A stretch of 64,000 nucleotides of DNA from an uncultured virus (IMG/VR IMGVR_UViG_3300046530_000052) (Duplodnaviria; Heunggongvirae; Uroviricota; Caudoviricetes). Made by a program: the position numbers and the translations under genes. This document shows positions 3,687 to 60,967 of the stretch, in pieces; the first letter of the stretch is position 1; every line of letters begins with the position of its first letter. The stretch is taken from positions 1 through 64,000 of IMG/VR virus record IMGVR_UViG_3300046530_000052. One strand, 5' to 3'. The notes beneath the pieces were generated by a model. That model did no database searches and was not told where the DNA came from. It saw nothing but the letters and a program-made list of their open reading frames with translations.

Positions 3687-4556
3687 TTAGCCTTTCAGTG
3701 CTACCACTTCTTTGATCTGCTCACGGAAAACAGCGCTCAGCTCGTTAAGGAGGGTCATCATAGCGCCACTGATGTCTACCAGACGAACAAAGTTGTTAAT
3801 AGTGAGTTCCAGGTCAGTCAACACACTACGCTCGAAGGTCAGCTGGTTCGACTTGATCTTCTCGATCAGGAGTTCACCCAAGTGATACGTCTTGGTCAGT
3901 TCACTGGCTACGATCTCGATGTCGCGAGCGCTGAGGGTCTTGAGGGACGTGTTGTACGTGTCCATCACTTCCATCATCTCGTTGAAGTTGACGTACACCT
4001 CGGACAGCGGAACCTTGTTACGACGTTGTTCATCCGGCAACGACTTGACGAACGTGTCGGCATTAAGGATGGATTCGTCGAGGTTGTTGATGGTCCACTT
4101 GAAACGCTTGTCGCTACGACCGGTCTTGATCATCTGCTTCAAGAAGTCGTAAAGACGAGTGGTTTCAGTACGCAGAGAGCCCAGCAGGTAAACCCCCTCA
4201 ACTGCACCTTTAACGTGGGCCATCATATTGGCGATGCCCGGGGTGTAGTTGGTAGGGACCGTGATAGGGACGGCGCTGTGACGCACGAAGCTGATTTCTT
4301 TTCGTGCAACCATATTACGCAATTTATTGTTGTCTACCACGTGGACAGGACGGGAGAAGAGAGCAACCTTCTTGTCAACCATGGTACCGAATTCGGAAAA
4401 GAACAGGCCGATGCCCTCACCCAAACTCAAGGATTCAATCCCTGCGATCTCCAGGGGTTCGTAGTTCTTGACCGCATCAATGAACTTAAGCTCTTCCAGT
4501 TCTTTCTGGAAGACAGTGTACTGACTCTCGAAACTGGTGTCGTCAATATTTTCCAT
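3687..4556 (-). CDS. Probable virion head protein with acidic propeptide
   Basis: ORF (alternative start 4607); acidic N-terminus ending in AGIE/S, like prohead-protease-processed head proteins; divergent from uvsX. Confidence 0.55.
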   Translation of the reverse strand: MENIDDTSFESQYTVFQKELEELKFIDAVKNYEPLEIAGIESLSLGEGIGLFFSEFGTMVDKKVALFSRPVHVVDNNKLRNMVARKEISFVRHSAVPITVPTNYTPGIANMMAHVKGAVEGVYLLGSLRTETTRLYDFLKQMIKTGRSDKRFKWTINNLDESILNADTFVKSLPDEQRRNKVPLSEVYVNFNEMMEVMDTYNTSLKTLSARDIEIVASELTKTYHLGELLIEKIKSNQLTFERSVLTDLELTINNFVRLVDISGAMMTLLNELSAVFREQIKEVVALKG

Positions 4557-55183: not shown

Positions 55184-56032
55184 TTATGTTCTGCGAGCAA
55201 TGCCCATGCGTTGAGCGTCGTGTACGTTCTGCTTGTCGCTCCAAGTCATGCAAGGAGTCCAAACCTTCAGGAAGTATTCCTTGTAGTTAGTCCACGCATC
55301 CTTGTACTCAGCGATATCGTCTTTGATATCCGAGAGCGCAACACCCATCTTGACAGCGGCTTCGTTAACCGGGCTTTTCAGTTTACGGTACAAGTACGCT
55401 TTAACACCCAGCTCTACCAGCTCAGCGAACTGCAAGTAGTGGTGAGCGTGGATGCTGCTCATCGCTTCGTCGTATTCCATGATGACCTTGGCACTCATGT
55501 TAAAAGTACCCATGTTGATACCGAAGATCACAAAGACGTTGTTACCCGTCATCTGGCAATCGGTATAGGTCTGCGGCATGGACTTGTTACCGGCCATGTT
55601 GTTAATCATGGAACCCATCATTTCGTTCACAACACCAGAACCACACTCAGCGTCGTTACCCACACCGATGCCCAGCTGACCGATAGCCGAGTTCATGGAA
55701 CCGAGGTAGCACTCAGTCACCGAAACAATCTTGGCACCTCGAGTGGTCATCTCAGGAACCTTAACTTCTAGGCAGCCGTTACCGATACTGCGCATCTCTG
55801 AACCACCGAGGTCCAGGTACTCTGTCTTACCACCACCGACCTTACAGTCAGGCAGGATCAACTGGTGGATAATCTTTTCACGGATACCTTGTTCAATGGT
55901 GGTCTCGTTGACCATGTTGTACCAGTTACCGAGTACGTTGGCGTTCTTGTTAGCAAAAGCCAATTCAAAAAGGTACTCACTGATGTCGGAGTTCAAAACC
56001 CGACTGATAGCAAAATCTACTGGGTTACCCAT
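55184..56032 (-). CDS. Conserved jumbo-phage protein (phiKZ gp033-like position, 282 aa)
   Basis: AAGGA RBS; first gene of the minus-strand operon. Confidence 0.6.
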   Translation of the reverse strand: MGNPVDFAISRVLNSDISEYLFELAFANKNANVLGNWYNMVNETTIEQGIREKIIHQLILPDCKVGGGKTEYLDLGGSEMRSIGNGCLEVKVPEMTTRGAKIVSVTECYLGSMNSAIGQLGIGVGNDAECGSGVVNEMMGSMINNMAGNKSMPQTYTDCQMTGNNVFVIFGINMGTFNMSAKVIMEYDEAMSSIHAHHYLQFAELVELGVKAYLYRKLKSPVNEAAVKMGVALSDIKDDIAEYKDAWTNYKEYFLKVWTPCMTWSDKQNVHDAQRMGIARRT

Positions 56033-56147
56033 AATCTAATGTCCTTTGATTGGTCAGGCTAAACATAACATTTCCTTTGATTGTTTTCTTAGGAGTATTT
56101 CATTGTATGTCTTACCTATACTTTTTGATTTTTGAAGAGTGGGGGTA

Positions 56148-56208
56148 AGAGTAAGACTTATGGAGTGGAGTAGCCCGAAGGGATACGGAACGGAATAAGG
56201 ATTACTCT
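56148..56208 (+). repeat. Imperfect inverted repeat with symmetric GA/GGA mismatches and a C-GAA-G triloop
   Basis: AGAGTAA-GA-CTTAT-GGA-GT-GGA-GTA-G-CCC-GAA-GGG-A-TAC-GGA-AC-GGA-ATAAG-GA-TTACTCT. Confidence 0.8.
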
Positions 56209-56387
56209 GGGGGAGTTGGTTGGGTTGGTTAGGTTCCGGATCATGCCCTACTGCCCTAAGGCCGCAGGCCTTTAAAGAAAAGTATTTTATTACTGTAATT
56301 ATTATAAAGCTAATTTAAACAATTTAAATAACTCTATTCCTGTTAAGGGAGTAGGGTAAGGGTCTACTATGCAAAAAGATAATAAAC

Positions 56388-56399
56388 CTACATTACTAG
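56388..56399 (+). promoter_or_regulatory. Putative phage early promoter (CTACATTACTAG)
   Basis: Repeated motif upstream of the Ntn-hydrolase cluster. Confidence 0.65.
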
Positions 56400-56514
56400 A
56401 GTGAATAAACACTTGATAATCTATTTTAAGCAATCAAGATGACTGGGTAAGGGGTTAGTTGGGATAAATCATCCTTAGTAACCCTTTGAGTCGATAACTG
56501 TAAGGAAGAAGAAA

Positions 56515-57195
56515 ATGACCATTGTTTGTTATGACGGTAAGAAGATGATCGCTGATAGTCTGGCTGCTACAGGGGATATGAAGCTCCCCGGAGCTTTTCA
56601 GAAGATCTATCATCCGCTGGATGATGAGTACTGGGAGATCAACAAAACAAAGGTTATTGCGTTTGGTTTTTCTGGTGCCTTGCCGGCGATTCCTTATATT
56701 CGGGAATTATTGAGTCAAGGGGTTACTTACCGGACGATCATTAAGCCGGATATCGACGTGGTCTTCGAAGCACTGTGCGTACTGGAAACGGGCGACGCGT
56801 ACGTACTCAGCACTGAACCAACTCGGGCTAAAGGTCCAAGTGCTCACGAGTTCGTTATGGTTCCGGTACCAGTTCCGGTAGCGGTAGGTAGCGGTGGTGT
56901 GTTTGCCTACGCGGCTATGGGGCCTAAAGATAAGAACCAAGCCGAGAAGGGCGTAGAGGCGGCTAAACGGCTTTGTCCTTTCTGTGGCGGGGATAACGTG
57001 GTCTGGGAGCTCCCACCTCCTCCAGAAGTCCCGAGCAAGCGTCCAGTATCGGTTCTGCCTGAGCTGGTAAACATTGAAGAGACCTATCCGATCAATGGGC
57101 TCAACATGGGACAGCTTAAGCACGTGGTTAGTGGGATCGTATCTGATCTGATGAAGAAAGCTGATGAACCAGTGACGGAGGTGAAGAATGGATAA
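56515..57195 (+). CDS. Proteasome-beta/HslV-like Ntn hydrolase, copy 1
   Basis: M-T1-IVCYDG..IADS, FQKI, AFGFSG, VAVGSGG. Confidence 0.75.
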   Translation: MTIVCYDGKKMIADSLAATGDMKLPGAFQKIYHPLDDEYWEINKTKVIAFGFSGALPAIPYIRELLSQGVTYRTIIKPDIDVVFEALCVLETGDAYVLSTEPTRAKGPSAHEFVMVPVPVPVAVGSGGVFAYAAMGPKDKNQAEKGVEAAKRLCPFCGGDNVVWELPPPPEVPSKRPVSVLPELVNIEETYPINGLNMGQLKHVVSGIVSDLMKKADEPVTEVKNG

Positions 57196-57433
57196 TCCGG
57201 AAACTATCACGATTACTTTGCCTAAAGGTAAGCTGGATTCCATTGAATCAATTACTACTCGGCCTATCGAGGGATATCCTGGGGTATCTGAAGTACTGAT
57301 CAATGGGGAACCCGGTCGTCTGCTGGTCGACCTTTCTCAATTCGAAAACAATGAAAATGATCTGCGACGTCTGTACACCGGTGTCGGGGAAGGTTTTATC
57401 AAGCACCATGTGCGAAAAAATAACAGGAGCTAG
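57188..57433 (+). CDS. Small hypothetical protein (81 aa) inside the Ntn-hydrolase cluster
   Basis: GGAGG RBS; overlaps the copy 1 stop and ends 1 nt before the copy 2 start. Confidence 0.6.
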   Translation: MDNPETITITLPKGKLDSIESITTRPIEGYPGVSEVLINGEPGRLLVDLSQFENNENDLRRLYTGVGEGFIKHHVRKNNRS

Positions 57434-57434
57434 T

Positions 57435-57950
57435 ATGACTACTGTAGCTTGGGATGGTAAATTGTTGGTAGCTGACTCACAGTCCACTGTTAACGGGCTG
57501 GCTACACTTAGTGTCTCTACAAAGATCTTCCTTCCCCCTGAAGGGGTTCTTACTAAATGGACGATCCAAGGAGAGTCGGTCGCGGCAATTGGTCTAGCGG
57601 GTTGTGCCATGGCACAATATACCTTTACGGACATGCTTGCGGAGGGGCTTACCCACCGTAGTCCAGTCCCTAAAGAATCCAGCTCCTTTGCCGCGTTGGT
57701 CATTACCCATACCGGTAAATGCTTCCGGTTTAACTATCGGAAGAAAGATGGCGAGGGTCCAAGCGTCCAATTGAGTTTTTCAAACGGCAAGGACGCAATC
57801 GGTAGTGGGGGTAGTTTTGCCAATGCTGTGATGAGTATCAATATCGACGCTGGTTTGGCAGTACAGGCGGCTATCAATGTTGATCCTAGCAGCGGTGGTT
57901 CGCTTCAAATCTGGAACTCTGCTGAGCCAGGTGTTATTTCCATTCGTTGA
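57435..57950 (+). CDS. Proteasome-beta/HslV-like Ntn hydrolase, copy 2 (171 aa)
   Basis: AGGAG RBS; M-T1-TVAWDG..VADS, STKI, AIGLAG, AIGSGG, DPSSGG. Confidence 0.75.
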   Translation: MTTVAWDGKLLVADSQSTVNGLATLSVSTKIFLPPEGVLTKWTIQGESVAAIGLAGCAMAQYTFTDMLAEGLTHRSPVPKESSSFAALVITHTGKCFRFNYRKKDGEGPSVQLSFSNGKDAIGSGGSFANAVMSINIDAGLAVQAAINVDPSSGGSLQIWNSAEPGVISIR

Positions 57951-57964
57951 GGTTAAGGGTAATT

Positions 57965-58558
57965 ATGACAACAGTAGCGTGGGACGGTAATACCTTAGCA
58001 GCAGATACTCTTTACGTGGCCGGTACTCGTAAGCTGGGAGGGGATTATGAAAAGATCCTGCTTCCGGAAGATACTCCATGGACAGTTAACGGTAAACCCA
58101 TTCTGGCAGTTGGCTTCAGTGGGTCGATTGCGACTATCCCATGCATCAAGAAAGTTCTGGAAGCTGACGCAGTACCCGGGGTTGATCCAGCATGTGGAGA
58201 TTACAGCTTCACGATCTTGTTGGTAACCGATAAGAAAGAAGTTTACTACTGGAACTACGGCTCCACTGCTAAAGGCGAAGTGATTAACGAGCTCTTCGCT
58301 GTGGAAGGTAATCACGCTATTGGTAGCGGCGGGATTTACGGTCTAGGGGTCATGGCCATTAAAGGCGATGCAATCAACGCAGTGAAAGCCGGTATCAAAA
58401 TCGATGTCAACAGCGGCGGTTACATTGACGTGTGGTCTTTCGAGACTCCTCGTCTGCTGACACGGATTAACCCCAAGGGCGGTGAAATCATCTCTGCCAA
58501 ACAAAACACACCTGCTCCCGAAAAGAGCAAAGCTATCTTATGCGCCGTGAACGGCTGA
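57965..58558 (+). CDS. Proteasome-beta/HslV-like Ntn hydrolase, copy 3 (197 aa)
   Basis: M-T1-TVAWDG..AADT, YEKI, AVGFSG, AIGSGG, DVNSGG. Confidence 0.75.
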   Translation: MTTVAWDGNTLAADTLYVAGTRKLGGDYEKILLPEDTPWTVNGKPILAVGFSGSIATIPCIKKVLEADAVPGVDPACGDYSFTILLVTDKKEVYYWNYGSTAKGEVINELFAVEGNHAIGSGGIYGLGVMAIKGDAINAVKAGIKIDVNSGGYIDVWSFETPRLLTRINPKGGEIISAKQNTPAPEKSKAILCAVNG

Positions 58559-58670
58559 GTTAGCCATCGCTCCATCGAGATCGTGGTGGGTTATGGGAGG
58601 TTAGACACCACACCCCCTCTTTACAGACTATTCTCTATCTGGTCTGTGAGGGTTGCCTACAAAACTTCCC

Positions 58671-58730
58671 CCCTCTCCCCCTACTCCTTCGGGGGTGGGG
58701 GTTAGGGGGTTATATTTTTATTTCATTTTT
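58671..58730 (+). terminator. Intrinsic terminator
   Basis: C-rich/G-rich stem with a C-TTCG-G loop followed by a T-rich tract. Confidence 0.7.
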
Positions 58731-58917
58731 TGTAACTGGGACCAGATACTATGTCCCCAGTACTGATTAGTGTGTCATGGCTCTCGTCAGTGCAAGGGGT
58801 GTTGCAAACCAATGTGATCTCCCCACACTCCATTTTGGAGGCCTGGCGATGCCCTATGTGGCGTAGGCATTGCCGGGTAACTTTTTTATTTGCAATTTGG
58901 GCTGAAATATTTCGGCT

Positions 58918-58929
58918 CTATATTACTAG
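58918..58929 (+). promoter_or_regulatory. Putative phage early promoter (CTATATTACTAG) for phuZ
   Basis: Repeated motif about 70 nt upstream of the tubulin gene. Confidence 0.65.
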
Positions 58930-58995
58930 GTTGTAGAGCAAATAGAGAATGCTTTATAACCTATTTTTGTAACGTCAACTCAAGAGTGATTAATA

Positions 58996-59961
58996 ATGTC
59001 TGATTCTACCGATCTGAAAATCTGGGCTTGCGGTGGTACTGGTATCAACGTTTCGGCCGAAGCCAAAGCCAAGCCTCTGACTCAAGCAATCAAAGATGCA
59101 CACGTGATCGGCCTGGACAGCTCTGACGCCAACGACAGCTCTGACCTGTTCGAAATCCACCGCATCGCAGGTCTGCAAGGCGCCGGCAAAGACGCCAACA
59201 AAATCATGGACAAAGTCCGTCCGTTCGTGAAGGCTCTCGTTGCCAGCGAAAAACCTGGTAACCACAACATCGTCGTCGTGAACATCTCCGGTGGTACCGG
59301 TCGTGGTATGGCGTTCCAACTGGTGCGCGAACTGATCGAGAAAGAAGCGATCGTTATCCTGGCAATGATCTCGGACTTCACCTCGGTCACCGAGAAAGAA
59401 AACTCGGTCAAACAGCGCACTGCTCTGGTGAACATGATCAACCAGCTCGGCAAGCCGATCTGCTTCATGGAGTTCACCGAAGACGCTGACAAAACTCGCG
59501 GTGAAGTGAACGCGGAAGTTATCCAAGGCATTGCTCTGGCCTCGGTGTTCCTGAGCAAGTACAAGTCGGAAATGGAAGTCTCCGACCTGACCAACCTGTT
59601 CAACTACTCCTACGACAACAAGGTTCCGCCGGCGCTGAGTCGTATCCAGTTCTACGACGAAGTCACTTCCAAGGAATACAACGGCCCGACTCCTGTAGCG
59701 GTTGGTAGTTTGTTCATCGACAACGCTTCGGTTCGCCAAGTGTTCCCTGGAACGGTTTACCGTAGTACCGGTATTCTGAACAAGAAGAACAACCCGCCTG
59801 GCGATCTGAAAGAACTGCACCTGACTCTCGACCACGGTGAAGCGTACGCTGCACTGCAAGAAGAGATCAAGGCGCTGGCCGACGACAAAGCCCAACTGGC
59901 TGCCCGCTTCGTGTCCCAGAAAGACATGAGTGCCGGTGCTGCTGATGACGGCTTCTGCTAA
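58996..59961 (+). CDS. phuZ: PhuZ phage tubulin (321 aa)
   Basis: WACGGTGIN, GLDSS, GAGKD, tubulin signature SGGTG, acidic C-terminal tail ADDGF. Confidence 0.9.
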   Translation: MSDSTDLKIWACGGTGINVSAEAKAKPLTQAIKDAHVIGLDSSDANDSSDLFEIHRIAGLQGAGKDANKIMDKVRPFVKALVASEKPGNHNIVVVNISGGTGRGMAFQLVRELIEKEAIVILAMISDFTSVTEKENSVKQRTALVNMINQLGKPICFMEFTEDADKTRGEVNAEVIQGIALASVFLSKYKSEMEVSDLTNLFNYSYDNKVPPALSRIQFYDEVTSKEYNGPTPVAVGSLFIDNASVRQVFPGTVYRSTGILNKKNNPPGDLKELHLTLDHGEAYAALQEEIKALADDKAQLAARFVSQKDMSAGAADDGFC

Positions 59962-59978
59962 GTAGCAGACGGTAAATA

Positions 59979-60010
59979 CCTTAGTTAGGAGCGCGCGCTC
60001 CTAACTAAGG
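59979..60010 (+). terminator. 32-bp perfect palindrome terminator
   Basis: CCTTAGTTAGGAGCGC|GCGCTCCTAACTAAGG after phuZ. Confidence 0.75.
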
Positions 60011-60042
60011 GTTTATTATGCAAAACTGTATTTTTACTGGGC

Positions 60043-60054
60043 TTACATTACTAT
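60043..60054 (+). promoter_or_regulatory. Putative phage early promoter (TTACATTACTAT)
   Basis: Variant of the repeated motif upstream of the next operon. Confidence 0.55.
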
Positions 60055-60088
60055 AGTGGGTTGTGTATTTGAAAATGAGGGCTTAAAC

Positions 60089-60382
60089 GTGTCTAAGAGC
60101 TTCTGTATTGATTTGAATCACTATCAGTTGACCCGGACCATAGGTAACGGAGGAAAGACGCTTAGAACGGCTGTAGATCGATCCGATCTCATTAACTGTT
60201 TAGAAGGCCTCGGTTACAATAGACTTGCTGAAGTGTCTTTCGGCAATGGTCGGTTTGGTTCTATCCCTGATTTTGAAGATGTGTTGCTTAAGCAGACATT
60301 AGGTATTCCTACCTCTGCTAACGTGGAAGTTAACCGAATAGGGACAGCGGGTAACATCTATTATCTTTCCTTCACTTATTGA
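60089..60382 (+). CDS. Hypothetical protein
   Basis: GAGG RBS before GTG 60089. Confidence 0.6.
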   Translation: MSKSFCIDLNHYQLTRTIGNGGKTLRTAVDRSDLINCLEGLGYNRLAEVSFGNGRFGSIPDFEDVLLKQTLGIPTSANVEVNRIGTAGNIYYLSFTY

Positions 60383-60391
60383 GACAACCTG

Positions 60392-60967
60392 ATGATTCTT
60401 TTTAACGTGTTTGAATTGGCCAAAGATCTTTTCTTCGAAGAGAAGGTCGAAGCTTCAGTACGACAGGTACTGGCTAAGGATATGGTTGACTCAGCCGTAG
60501 AGATCTTTAATTACCCCCATCTCGAGAATGCCGAGATCTGCAAGTTCCTGGAAGAATGGGAATCTGCTTACGGGGTGATGAACATCGAAAAGGTTATGGT
60601 TGGGTTAGTCAACACCATCCGTAAAAATGTCAGAAGATCTGGTTGGGATCGCCGTTGCTTAGCTAAAGTGGAATATCAAGGTGACGGTCGTGGGTTCTTA
60701 ATGGCTCGTGTGGTAATGGACTTGGATGAAACCATGGCCAAGATGCTAGCGAGTATCCCTGCTGTGGATAACTCTGAACCAGTCGCAGAAGCGGTATCTG
60801 ACCATCCTGATCCGGATATGTTAAATGAACTCAACAAAACGGCTGAAAAACAGACCCGCCGGAATCTACAGGTACTATCAGGTAGTGTTGCTCCCAACCT
60901 ACGATCAGATTCGCCAAAAGGTTGGCGGAGTGTGCAACGGGGAGATACGGGGAACTGGGGCGTATAA
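60392..60967 (+). CDS. Conserved hypothetical protein (191 aa)
   Basis: ORF in the operon between phuZ and the DNA polymerase. Confidence 0.65.
   Translation: MILFNVFELAKDLFFEEKVEASVRQVLAKDMVDSAVEIFNYPHLENAEICKFLEEWESAYGVMNIEKVMVGLVNTIRKNVRRSGWDRRCLAKVEYQGDGRGFLMARVVMDLDETMAKMLASIPAVDNSEPVAEAVSDHPDPDMLNELNKTAEKQTRRNLQVLSGSVAPNLRSDSPKGWRSVQRGDTGNWGV

Follow-up and report, generated by a model that had tools for sequence, protein, structure and literature searches.

A predicted operon of three proteasome-like Ntn hydrolase paralogs and a small gene, conserved upstream of phuZ in jumbo phages

The 64,000-nt window analysed here (positions 1–64,000 of the 126-kb virus record IMGVR_UViG_3300046530_000052) carries on its plus strand, at 56515–58558, four tightly packed genes in the order A, small gene, B, C. 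Genes A, B and C encode three diverged paralogs with a predicted proteasome-type N-terminal nucleophile (Ntn) hydrolase fold, and the small gene encodes an 81-aa protein. In our best reading, to which we give about an even chance, the genes make up an ATPase-less, probably hetero-oligomeric threonine peptidase operon with a small accessory protein. The protein family itself is already known, as PPH/RPC (PMC8665760) and as PHROG 1040; the new part seems to be the arrangement, a conserved three-paralog operon with a small gene and with a dead paralog in a sister lineage. A first-pass annotation of the same DNA had recognized three diverged paralogs starting with Met-Thr and a tightly packed 81-aa open reading frame (ORF), and the ORFs, the starts and the PHROG 1040 matches all agree with that description. 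The four genes and their downstream neighbour are as follows.

56515–57195, plus strand: paralog A, 226 aa, a PPH-type, proteasome-like Ntn hydrolase extended at its C-terminus by a Pro-rich linker and a helix
57188–57433, plus strand: small gene, 81 aa, no known family
57435–57950, plus strand: paralog B, 171 aa, a PPH-type Ntn hydrolase in which 7 of 7 checked catalytic or supporting residues are canonical
57965–58558, plus strand: paralog C, 197 aa, a PPH-type Ntn hydrolase whose catalytic residues are canonical and whose C-terminal tail is short
58996–59961, plus strand: phuZ, encoding the PhuZ tubulin (phrog_4733, E 3.9e-68), a conserved downstream neighbour outside the operon

In the window, the end of A overlaps the small gene by 8 nt, 1 nt separates the small gene from B and 14 nt separate B from C, and the spacer between C and phuZ measures 437 nt. 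In the orthologous array of another phage (locus L070, genome G003), all five genes overlap, by 1 nt after A, by 4 nt at two junctions and by 20 nt at one. The overlaps and tiny spacers in both phages argue for co-translation in fixed proportions, and the four genes of the window are best described as one tightly coupled predicted operon. The extra gene of L070 (6497–6760) is an 87-aa ORF of no known family that lies between A and the small gene, overlapping the former by 1 nt and the latter by 4 nt, and is missing from the window.

Two of the mechanically called ORFs open further 5', that of B at 57303 and that of C at a TTG codon at 57947. The Met-Thr codons rather than these upstream openings are nonetheless the likely starts of B and C, because a Shine-Dalgarno-like purine run precedes each Met-Thr start (A, B and C) by 5–11 nt, because 132 of the 150 listed family representatives have Met-Thr at the N-terminus, and because Thr occupies the Thr1 column in 144 of 157 aligned family sequences. 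Nearly all family representatives align from their own residue 1, and for B the Met-Thr start is further made likely by the conserved small gene, which takes up the upstream stretch in another frame. The earlier proposal that Thr is N-terminal, with no true start upstream, thus agrees with the placement of the ribosome-binding sites and the prevalence of Met-Thr. Methionine aminopeptidase removes Met before Thr, so that Thr would become residue 1 without any propeptide. Exposure of Thr1 by the host methionine aminopeptidase would quite probably leave each subunit active without autoprocessing.

The small gene appears to be real by its pattern of conservation. Three relatives with 86, 77 and 74% identity are all 81 aa long and differ by conservative changes, and L070 has a homolog of 87 aa (~36–37% identity) in the same place, immediately before B. 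In the comparison of the window with L070, the frame pair of the small gene is the only one that is conserved and open, with a score of 147 against at most 26 in the other eight. No Pfam, PHROG or NCBIfam model matched the protein, no relatives beyond the window's own phage were found in IMG/VR, and a structure Atlas search returned no lead (best score 0.87, with a query model at a predicted local distance difference test (pLDDT) value of 0.50). Four weak partial metagenome matches, with no HslV-like gene alongside, were dropped as spurious.

All three paralogs match phrog_1040, labelled 'peptidase HslV family' (A, E 2.4e-20; B, 1.8e-23; C, 1.8e-19), over residues 1 to ~165; within the window, B is 37% identical to C and 31% identical to A. 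B alone gave 0 matches among the PDB sequences. With a profile of A, B, C and three relatives as the query, the leading PDB matches were proteasome beta5 (E 5e-5), BPH (5ovu, 5.9e-5) and mycobacterial PrcB (1.2e-4), and the alignments place Thr1, Asp17, Lys33, GSG(129) and D..SGG(166–170) on their proteasome counterparts. The family is large: at E≤0.001 it counts 7,291 representative proteins, of which 1,164 reach E≤1e-10, many of the lower-ranked relatives being 140–160 aa long, and 48 viral models in BFVD match at E≤0.001.

An AlphaFold2 model of B, built from a 113-sequence alignment, reached a pLDDT of 96.2 and a predicted template modelling score of 0.91. Foldseek returned 414 PDB matches to this model at E≤0.001, with proteasome beta chains on top. 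Against 48,161 representative chains, the structural search with VIA-align gave immunoproteasome beta5i (6e5b_K) a Z of 17.2, T. maritima HslV (1m4y_A) a Z of 16.7 with a root-mean-square deviation (rmsd) of 2.2 over 141 residues, and BPH Z values of 15.6 and 13.4 (PDB 5ovs, 5ovu), followed by Anbu (13.3), proteasome alpha subunits (10–11.5) and connectase (8.7 and 8.1). Model residue 2 of B, the Thr, superposes on residue 1 of 1m4y_A. By these models, beta5i, HslV and BPH are effectively tied as the closest structures. The structure comparison proposed in the first-pass annotation, carried out here with Foldseek and VIA-align (Z 15.6–17.2), thus bears out its assignment, and A, B and C, of which B and A were modelled, are predicted to have a proteasome-type Ntn hydrolase fold.

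The models differ from proteasome beta subunits and HslV in the first helix pair. The only helices that DSSP assigns in the B model are 60–69, 126–133 and 139–149; the A model (pLDDT 90.8) has core helices 58–68, 128–134 and 142–153, plus a C-terminal helix at 198–217. In both models the first pair is thus reduced to one helix, with H1 kept and H2 missing, compared with two in proteasome beta and HslV. Fuchs et al. 2021 (PMC8665760), in the text available of it, describe PPH and RPC as group-I proteasome homologs with no propeptide and no H2, the RPC with a C-terminal extension. A, B and C resemble them in the Thr1/Asp17/Lys33/Gly47 core and the absence of a propeptide, the A and B models in lacking H2, and A in having a C-terminal extension that recalls that of RPC. 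They differ in size, with 226, 171 and 197 aa for A, B and C compared with ~140 residues for PPH as given there, and the same text lists RPC only in Proteobacteria, not in phages. It mentions no tandem arrays, dead paralogs or small partner, although the supplements of that paper might list arrays. Membership of A, B and C in PPH/RPC fits by the features described for PPH, not by clustering with its representatives. The A-type C-terminal extension (window 57010–57195, A residues ~166–226) also occurs in L013, the array locus of a third phage (6500–6696), and in the family member P0002; it consists of a PPxPEVPSxRP-like Pro-rich motif and, after it, an amphipathic helix, and could be a docking element.

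The catalytic motif claimed for all three paralogs in the first-pass annotation was recovered in the alignment columns for T1, D17, K33, G47 and S129, which A, B and C all carry; B and C also have the canonical D166 and S169, where A has Cys at both positions. By sequence, all three window paralogs look catalytically competent, A with a modified second shell.

Three genomes bear the array. The complete genome of the window's own phage (G001; 234,503 bp, terminal repeats, 100% complete) has an operon identical (100%) to that of the window and exactly three copies of the family; exactly three tandem copies are likewise present in G002, which contains L013 (227,388 bp, 99% complete), and in G003, which contains L070 (229,109 bp, 100% complete). 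In each of the three, phuZ directly follows the array, and the same two divergent genes, phrog_3179 and phrog_2921, precede it. Among 121 related loci, which overlap on shared contigs, so that these are locus and not genome counts, 9 have three matches (6 from the window's own phage, 2 from G002 and 1 from G003), 106 have one and 6 have none. No GenBank phage record showed a comparable array, and we found no paper describing one, in line with the earlier statement that no characterised three-subunit phage example is known. Pseudomonas phage EL has a single copy, gp15, at the corresponding place, before phuZ and after a phrog_3179-like gene, and pSal-SNUABM-04 is described in the accessible text of PMC7823757 as having two unlinked HslV ORFs. 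Phages RAY and RisingSun gave no match to the family profile.

The window and L070 arrays correspond gene by gene. Identity between orthologs is 57% for A, 51% for B and 55% for C, compared with at most 34% between any two paralogs, and FastTree supports the ortholog pairs at 0.998 (A), 0.93 (B) and 0.999 (C). In the flanks, the phrog_3179 gene is 82% and PhuZ 84% identical between the two phages, and the two genes after phuZ are ~70% identical. Given 51–57% identity in the array compared with 82–84% in the flanks, the array genes appear to evolve much faster than their core neighbours. We also computed a quick IQ-TREE tree with Shimodaira–Hasegawa-like approximate likelihood ratio test (SH-aLRT) supports, in which A, L013 copy 1 and EL gp15 fall in one 27-row clade (SH-aLRT 98), and B, C and L013 copies 2 and 3 form its sister group (20 rows, support 86, inner forks open). 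The paralogs thus look old, and the triplet seems to have stayed intact through roughly 50% protein divergence.

One array member in the sister lineage has lost Thr1 and Lys33. Copy 3 of L013 starts with Met-Ser, which gives Ser1, and has Arg33 and Ser47; it groups at SH-aLRT 99 with P0043, P0047 and P0050, all of which have Gly1 and two of which have Arg33. All four proteins retain Asp17, Gly128, Gly130, Asp166, Ser169 and Gly170. The contig from which P0047 comes is 240.8 kb long, and nothing was found in IMG/VR with P0043 and P0047 as queries. A retained inactive paralog with, judging by these residues, an intact fold would most simply be a structural subunit of a mixed assembly.

We propose the following scheme. 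One operon with its own promoter-like motif and terminator would yield three PPH-type subunits and a lineage-specific small protein. A, B and C would come together in a single mixed oligomer, not in three separate ones, a step to which we assign a little less than an even chance and which is favoured because of the one-to-one orthologs, the translational coupling and the dead-paralog clade. The 81-aa protein might bind the assembly as a regulator, cap or assembly factor, which we suggest only tentatively. During infection, the complex would cleave peptides or loosely folded host or phage proteins with no phage-encoded unfoldase, and its peptidase role would be accessory and fast-evolving, not core. 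As fast-evolving accessory genes of nucleus-forming-type jumbo phages, the array genes behave as host-interaction genes would be expected to. Proteasome homologs are common in phages. The conserved operon gives a concrete handle on them, with a mixed assembly as its prediction.

Several observations weigh against this scheme. The GenBank phage records that matched B, A, C, P0047 and P0014 (83, 24, 85, 38 and 120, respectively) did so in one place each, as counted by tblastn, which diverged second copies, such as the two unlinked ORFs of pSal-SNUABM-04, can escape; since EL and the matching records are single-copy, a homo-oligomer would be ancestral and sufficient. No Pfam model, including Proteasome, matched A, B or C, and no NCBIfam model did so at E≤1. 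For L013 copies 2 and 3, FastTree supports orthology with B and C at only 0.47–0.70, and part of the L013 array may be independent. The loci of L013 and EL lack the small gene, so the array does not depend on it. The Cys residues that A has at 166 and 169, and Cys129, Ser166 and Cys169 in the L070 ortholog of A, could change or impair catalysis. No copy in the window's own phage looks dead; all three appear active, and three paralogs with the catalytic triad fit three independent enzymes equally well. Finally, the available text of PMC8665760 states that helix loss may be incompatible with proteasome-like stacked rings.

Much of this could also be accommodated if A, B and C were three independent homo-oligomeric peptidases with their own substrates, the operon reflecting co-regulation and the small gene being a passenger. 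Thr1, Asp17, Lys33 and Gly47 are kept in all three paralogs, single-copy phages such as EL show that the fold works alone, the separation of A from B and C at SH-aLRT 98 implies old paralogs for which separate roles are possible, and L013 manages without the small gene. We nevertheless consider independent enzymes, the main alternative, unlikely: all three genes are retained in 3 of 3 array-bearing genomes, they are tightly coupled in translation, a dead-paralog clade inside the array is hard to explain for a stand-alone enzyme, and the small gene stays between A and B across ~50% divergence.

A stronger version of the mixed assembly would be a virus-encoded heteromeric proteasome-like particle with three distinct beta-type subunits, one of them catalytically dead in a sister lineage, which would be co-translated with a small cap or assembly protein and work without alpha subunits or a dedicated ATPase. 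We regard this stronger version as possible but doubtful. Its targets would probably be host proteins, given how much faster the genes evolve than their neighbours. If true, viruses would have arrived independently at the kind of subunit differentiation otherwise found in the 20S beta ring of eukaryotes; a mixed particle would be the first virus-derived heteromeric machine of the proteasome type and would offer a minimal model of how differentiation among proteasome subunits comes about in evolution.

In our best reading, the threonine peptidase would work without a dedicated phage ATPase. The absence of an HslU/AAA ATPase and of an alpha subunit, noted earlier for the window, extends to the complete 234.5-kb genome. 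The Pfam models AAA_2, AAA and Proteasome matched neither of the two genomes scanned, G001 and G002 (E≤1 for Proteasome), and detected their targets in 14 of 14, 14 of 14 and 11 of 14 positive-control genomes, respectively. The family's own profile found only the three copies in each of G001 and G002. The HslU-like gp116 of phage RAY, used as a query in a search without a positive control, found nothing in G001, G002, G003 or EL. These searches point to no detectable phage-encoded AAA/AAA_2 ATPase or alpha subunit in G001 and G002, and use of a host unfoldase would be possible.

The subunits might instead dock onto the host HslU or another AAA+ protein and so redirect degradation, or titrate HslU away from HslV. 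The fold is equally near to HslV (Z 16.7, rmsd 2.2) and to proteasome beta, no phage unfoldase was found and databases label the family 'HslV family'. Set against this, the profile ranks beta5, BPH and PrcB first, with no HslV chain among the best 60 of 101 PDB matches, the NCBIfam and Pfam HslV/proteasome models are unmatched and the loss of H2 changes the surface; moreover, a decoy would not need three paralogs. We rate this hijack or decoy role as quite improbable.

Still less probable is a chemistry other than proteolysis, with acyl transfer of another kind such as that of amidases, connectase-like ligases or isopeptidases. Amidases and connectase belong to the Ntn superfamily and come lower in the structural list (Z 7–9.4), and no paper testing the function of PPH-type phage proteasome homologs turned up in our literature search. 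However, the closest structures by far are proteasome-family peptidases (Z 15.6–17.2 compared with 8.7 for connectase), the set Thr1/Asp17/Lys33/Gly47/Ser129/Asp166/Ser169 is complete in B and C, and no ubiquitin-like or conjugation gene caught our attention in the operon or directly beside it, although no dedicated search for such genes was made. The idea, raised in the first-pass annotation, of an isopeptidase reversing ubiquitin-like conjugation found no supporting feature.

Phage RAY and its relatives offered further candidates for comparison. In RAY (KU886224.1, 86352–89163), gp116, annotated as an HslU-like ATPase of 569 aa, is followed by two tandem 179-aa genes; these were ruled out as family members (hhalign probability <1%). 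The available text of a RAY preprint reports a nuclear-localised 'HslVU family' protein, which is gp116. That localisation is not transferable to A, B and C, as gp116 is annotated as the ATPase subunit and RAY has no match to the family profile. For Special G, a relative of RAY, the BFVD search did list a weakly matching model (rank 38, E 1.5e-4).

HslV is a homo-dodecamer, and the eukaryotic 20S beta ring has seven paralogous beta subunits, three of them active and four inactive. A, B and C resemble HslV (ClpQ; 1m4y) in size, in fold (Z 16.7) and in the Met-Thr start; they differ from it in having no encoded HslU, no H2, no match to the curated HslV/proteasome models and three paralogs. The array is like the 20S beta subunits in that beta5-type chains are its best sequence and structure matches, diverged paralogs are kept together and an inactive paralog occurs in a sister phage; in contrast to the 20S particle, it has no alpha subunits, propeptides or regulatory ATPase and only three paralogs. 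BPH (5ovs, 5ovu) is an ATPase-less bacterial proteasome homolog among the best sequence and structure matches, but it is a single-gene cellular protein in which, as the available text of PMC8665760 describes it, the first helix pair is complete, whereas the A and B models lack H2 and the viral paralogs number three. Connectase, in the same source, has no first helix pair, whereas the A and B models keep H1, and its Z of 8.7 and 8.1 lies far below those of proteasome beta, HslV and BPH. EL gp15 and PHROG 1040 are the nearest phage counterparts: all three paralogs match the PHROG, and gp15 has the same place as the array and the same clade as A. EL and the other matching GenBank records have one detectable copy, as opposed to three diverged copies and a small gene in the window.

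Candidate transcription signals flank the operon:

56389–56399, plus strand: promoter-like motif TACATTACTAG, an exact copy, 116 nt upstream of the ATG of A
58669–58731, plus strand: G+C-rich hairpin (58669–58709) followed by a U-rich tract
58919–58929, plus strand: promoter-like motif TATATTACTAG, 67 nt upstream of phuZ

The motif TAYATTACTAG, with at most one mismatch, occurs 6 times in the window, always on the plus strand, compared with 0.96 expected, and 0 of 100 shuffled sequences reach 6. L070 has identical 11-mers 82 nt before the A ortholog and 67 nt before phuZ, and by eye the motif looks like the sequence that the EL record marks as a 'putative phage promoter' ahead of phuZ. It contains an 8-mer of the phiKZ early consensus. 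The phiKZ-type 8-mer TATATTAC alone was not enriched in the window (2 matches, 0.82 expected), scans with TATWTTAC and TAATTTNAAAC were likewise uninformative, and a sigma-70 scan found a single promoter-like site, on the minus strand, whereas shuffled sequences gave more. Of the 'early-promoter' motif named in the first-pass annotation, the motif therefore stands by its enrichment, and the early timing has no support. The terminator it placed behind the array corresponds to the hairpin and U-rich tract: the 81-nt segment 58655–58735 folds at -33.1 kcal/mol (z -3.3), a stability reached by 2 of 200 shuffles, and the element after C is likely the intrinsic terminator of the operon, although a simple terminator consensus scan did not list the hairpin at 58669–58709. 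The hairpin after C together with the second motif copy before phuZ implies that the operon and phuZ would be separate transcription units.

A family member elsewhere has an unusual upstream context. P0163, on a 2,955-bp contig and in the cluster of the A ortholog P0005, is a 486-aa gene call in which an HNH_3-like endonuclease stretch (E 1.9e-5, 24.7 bits with a cut-off of 24.8) runs in frame, with no stop, into an A ortholog with an internal Met-Thr. It is probably a homing endonuclease inserted just upstream and not a true fusion.

The long divergent intergenic region between the phrog_3179 gene (minus strand) and the first Ntn gene (plus strand) also contains a conserved stem-loop, at 56140–56222 in the window, ~4148–4235 in EL (L001) and ~5540–5612 in L013. 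No Rfam family matched in 55900–60500. The stem-loop is flanked by GGGGGTAAGA and CTGGGGGA; the letters of the stem differ between the three phages and complementarity is kept, with 13 of 19 pairs showing a compensatory change in a comparison of only 3 sequences. The other plus-strand copies of TAYATTACTAG lie at 1309, 9092, 32783 and 60044, the last of them just before a conserved 97-aa-type gene downstream of phuZ.

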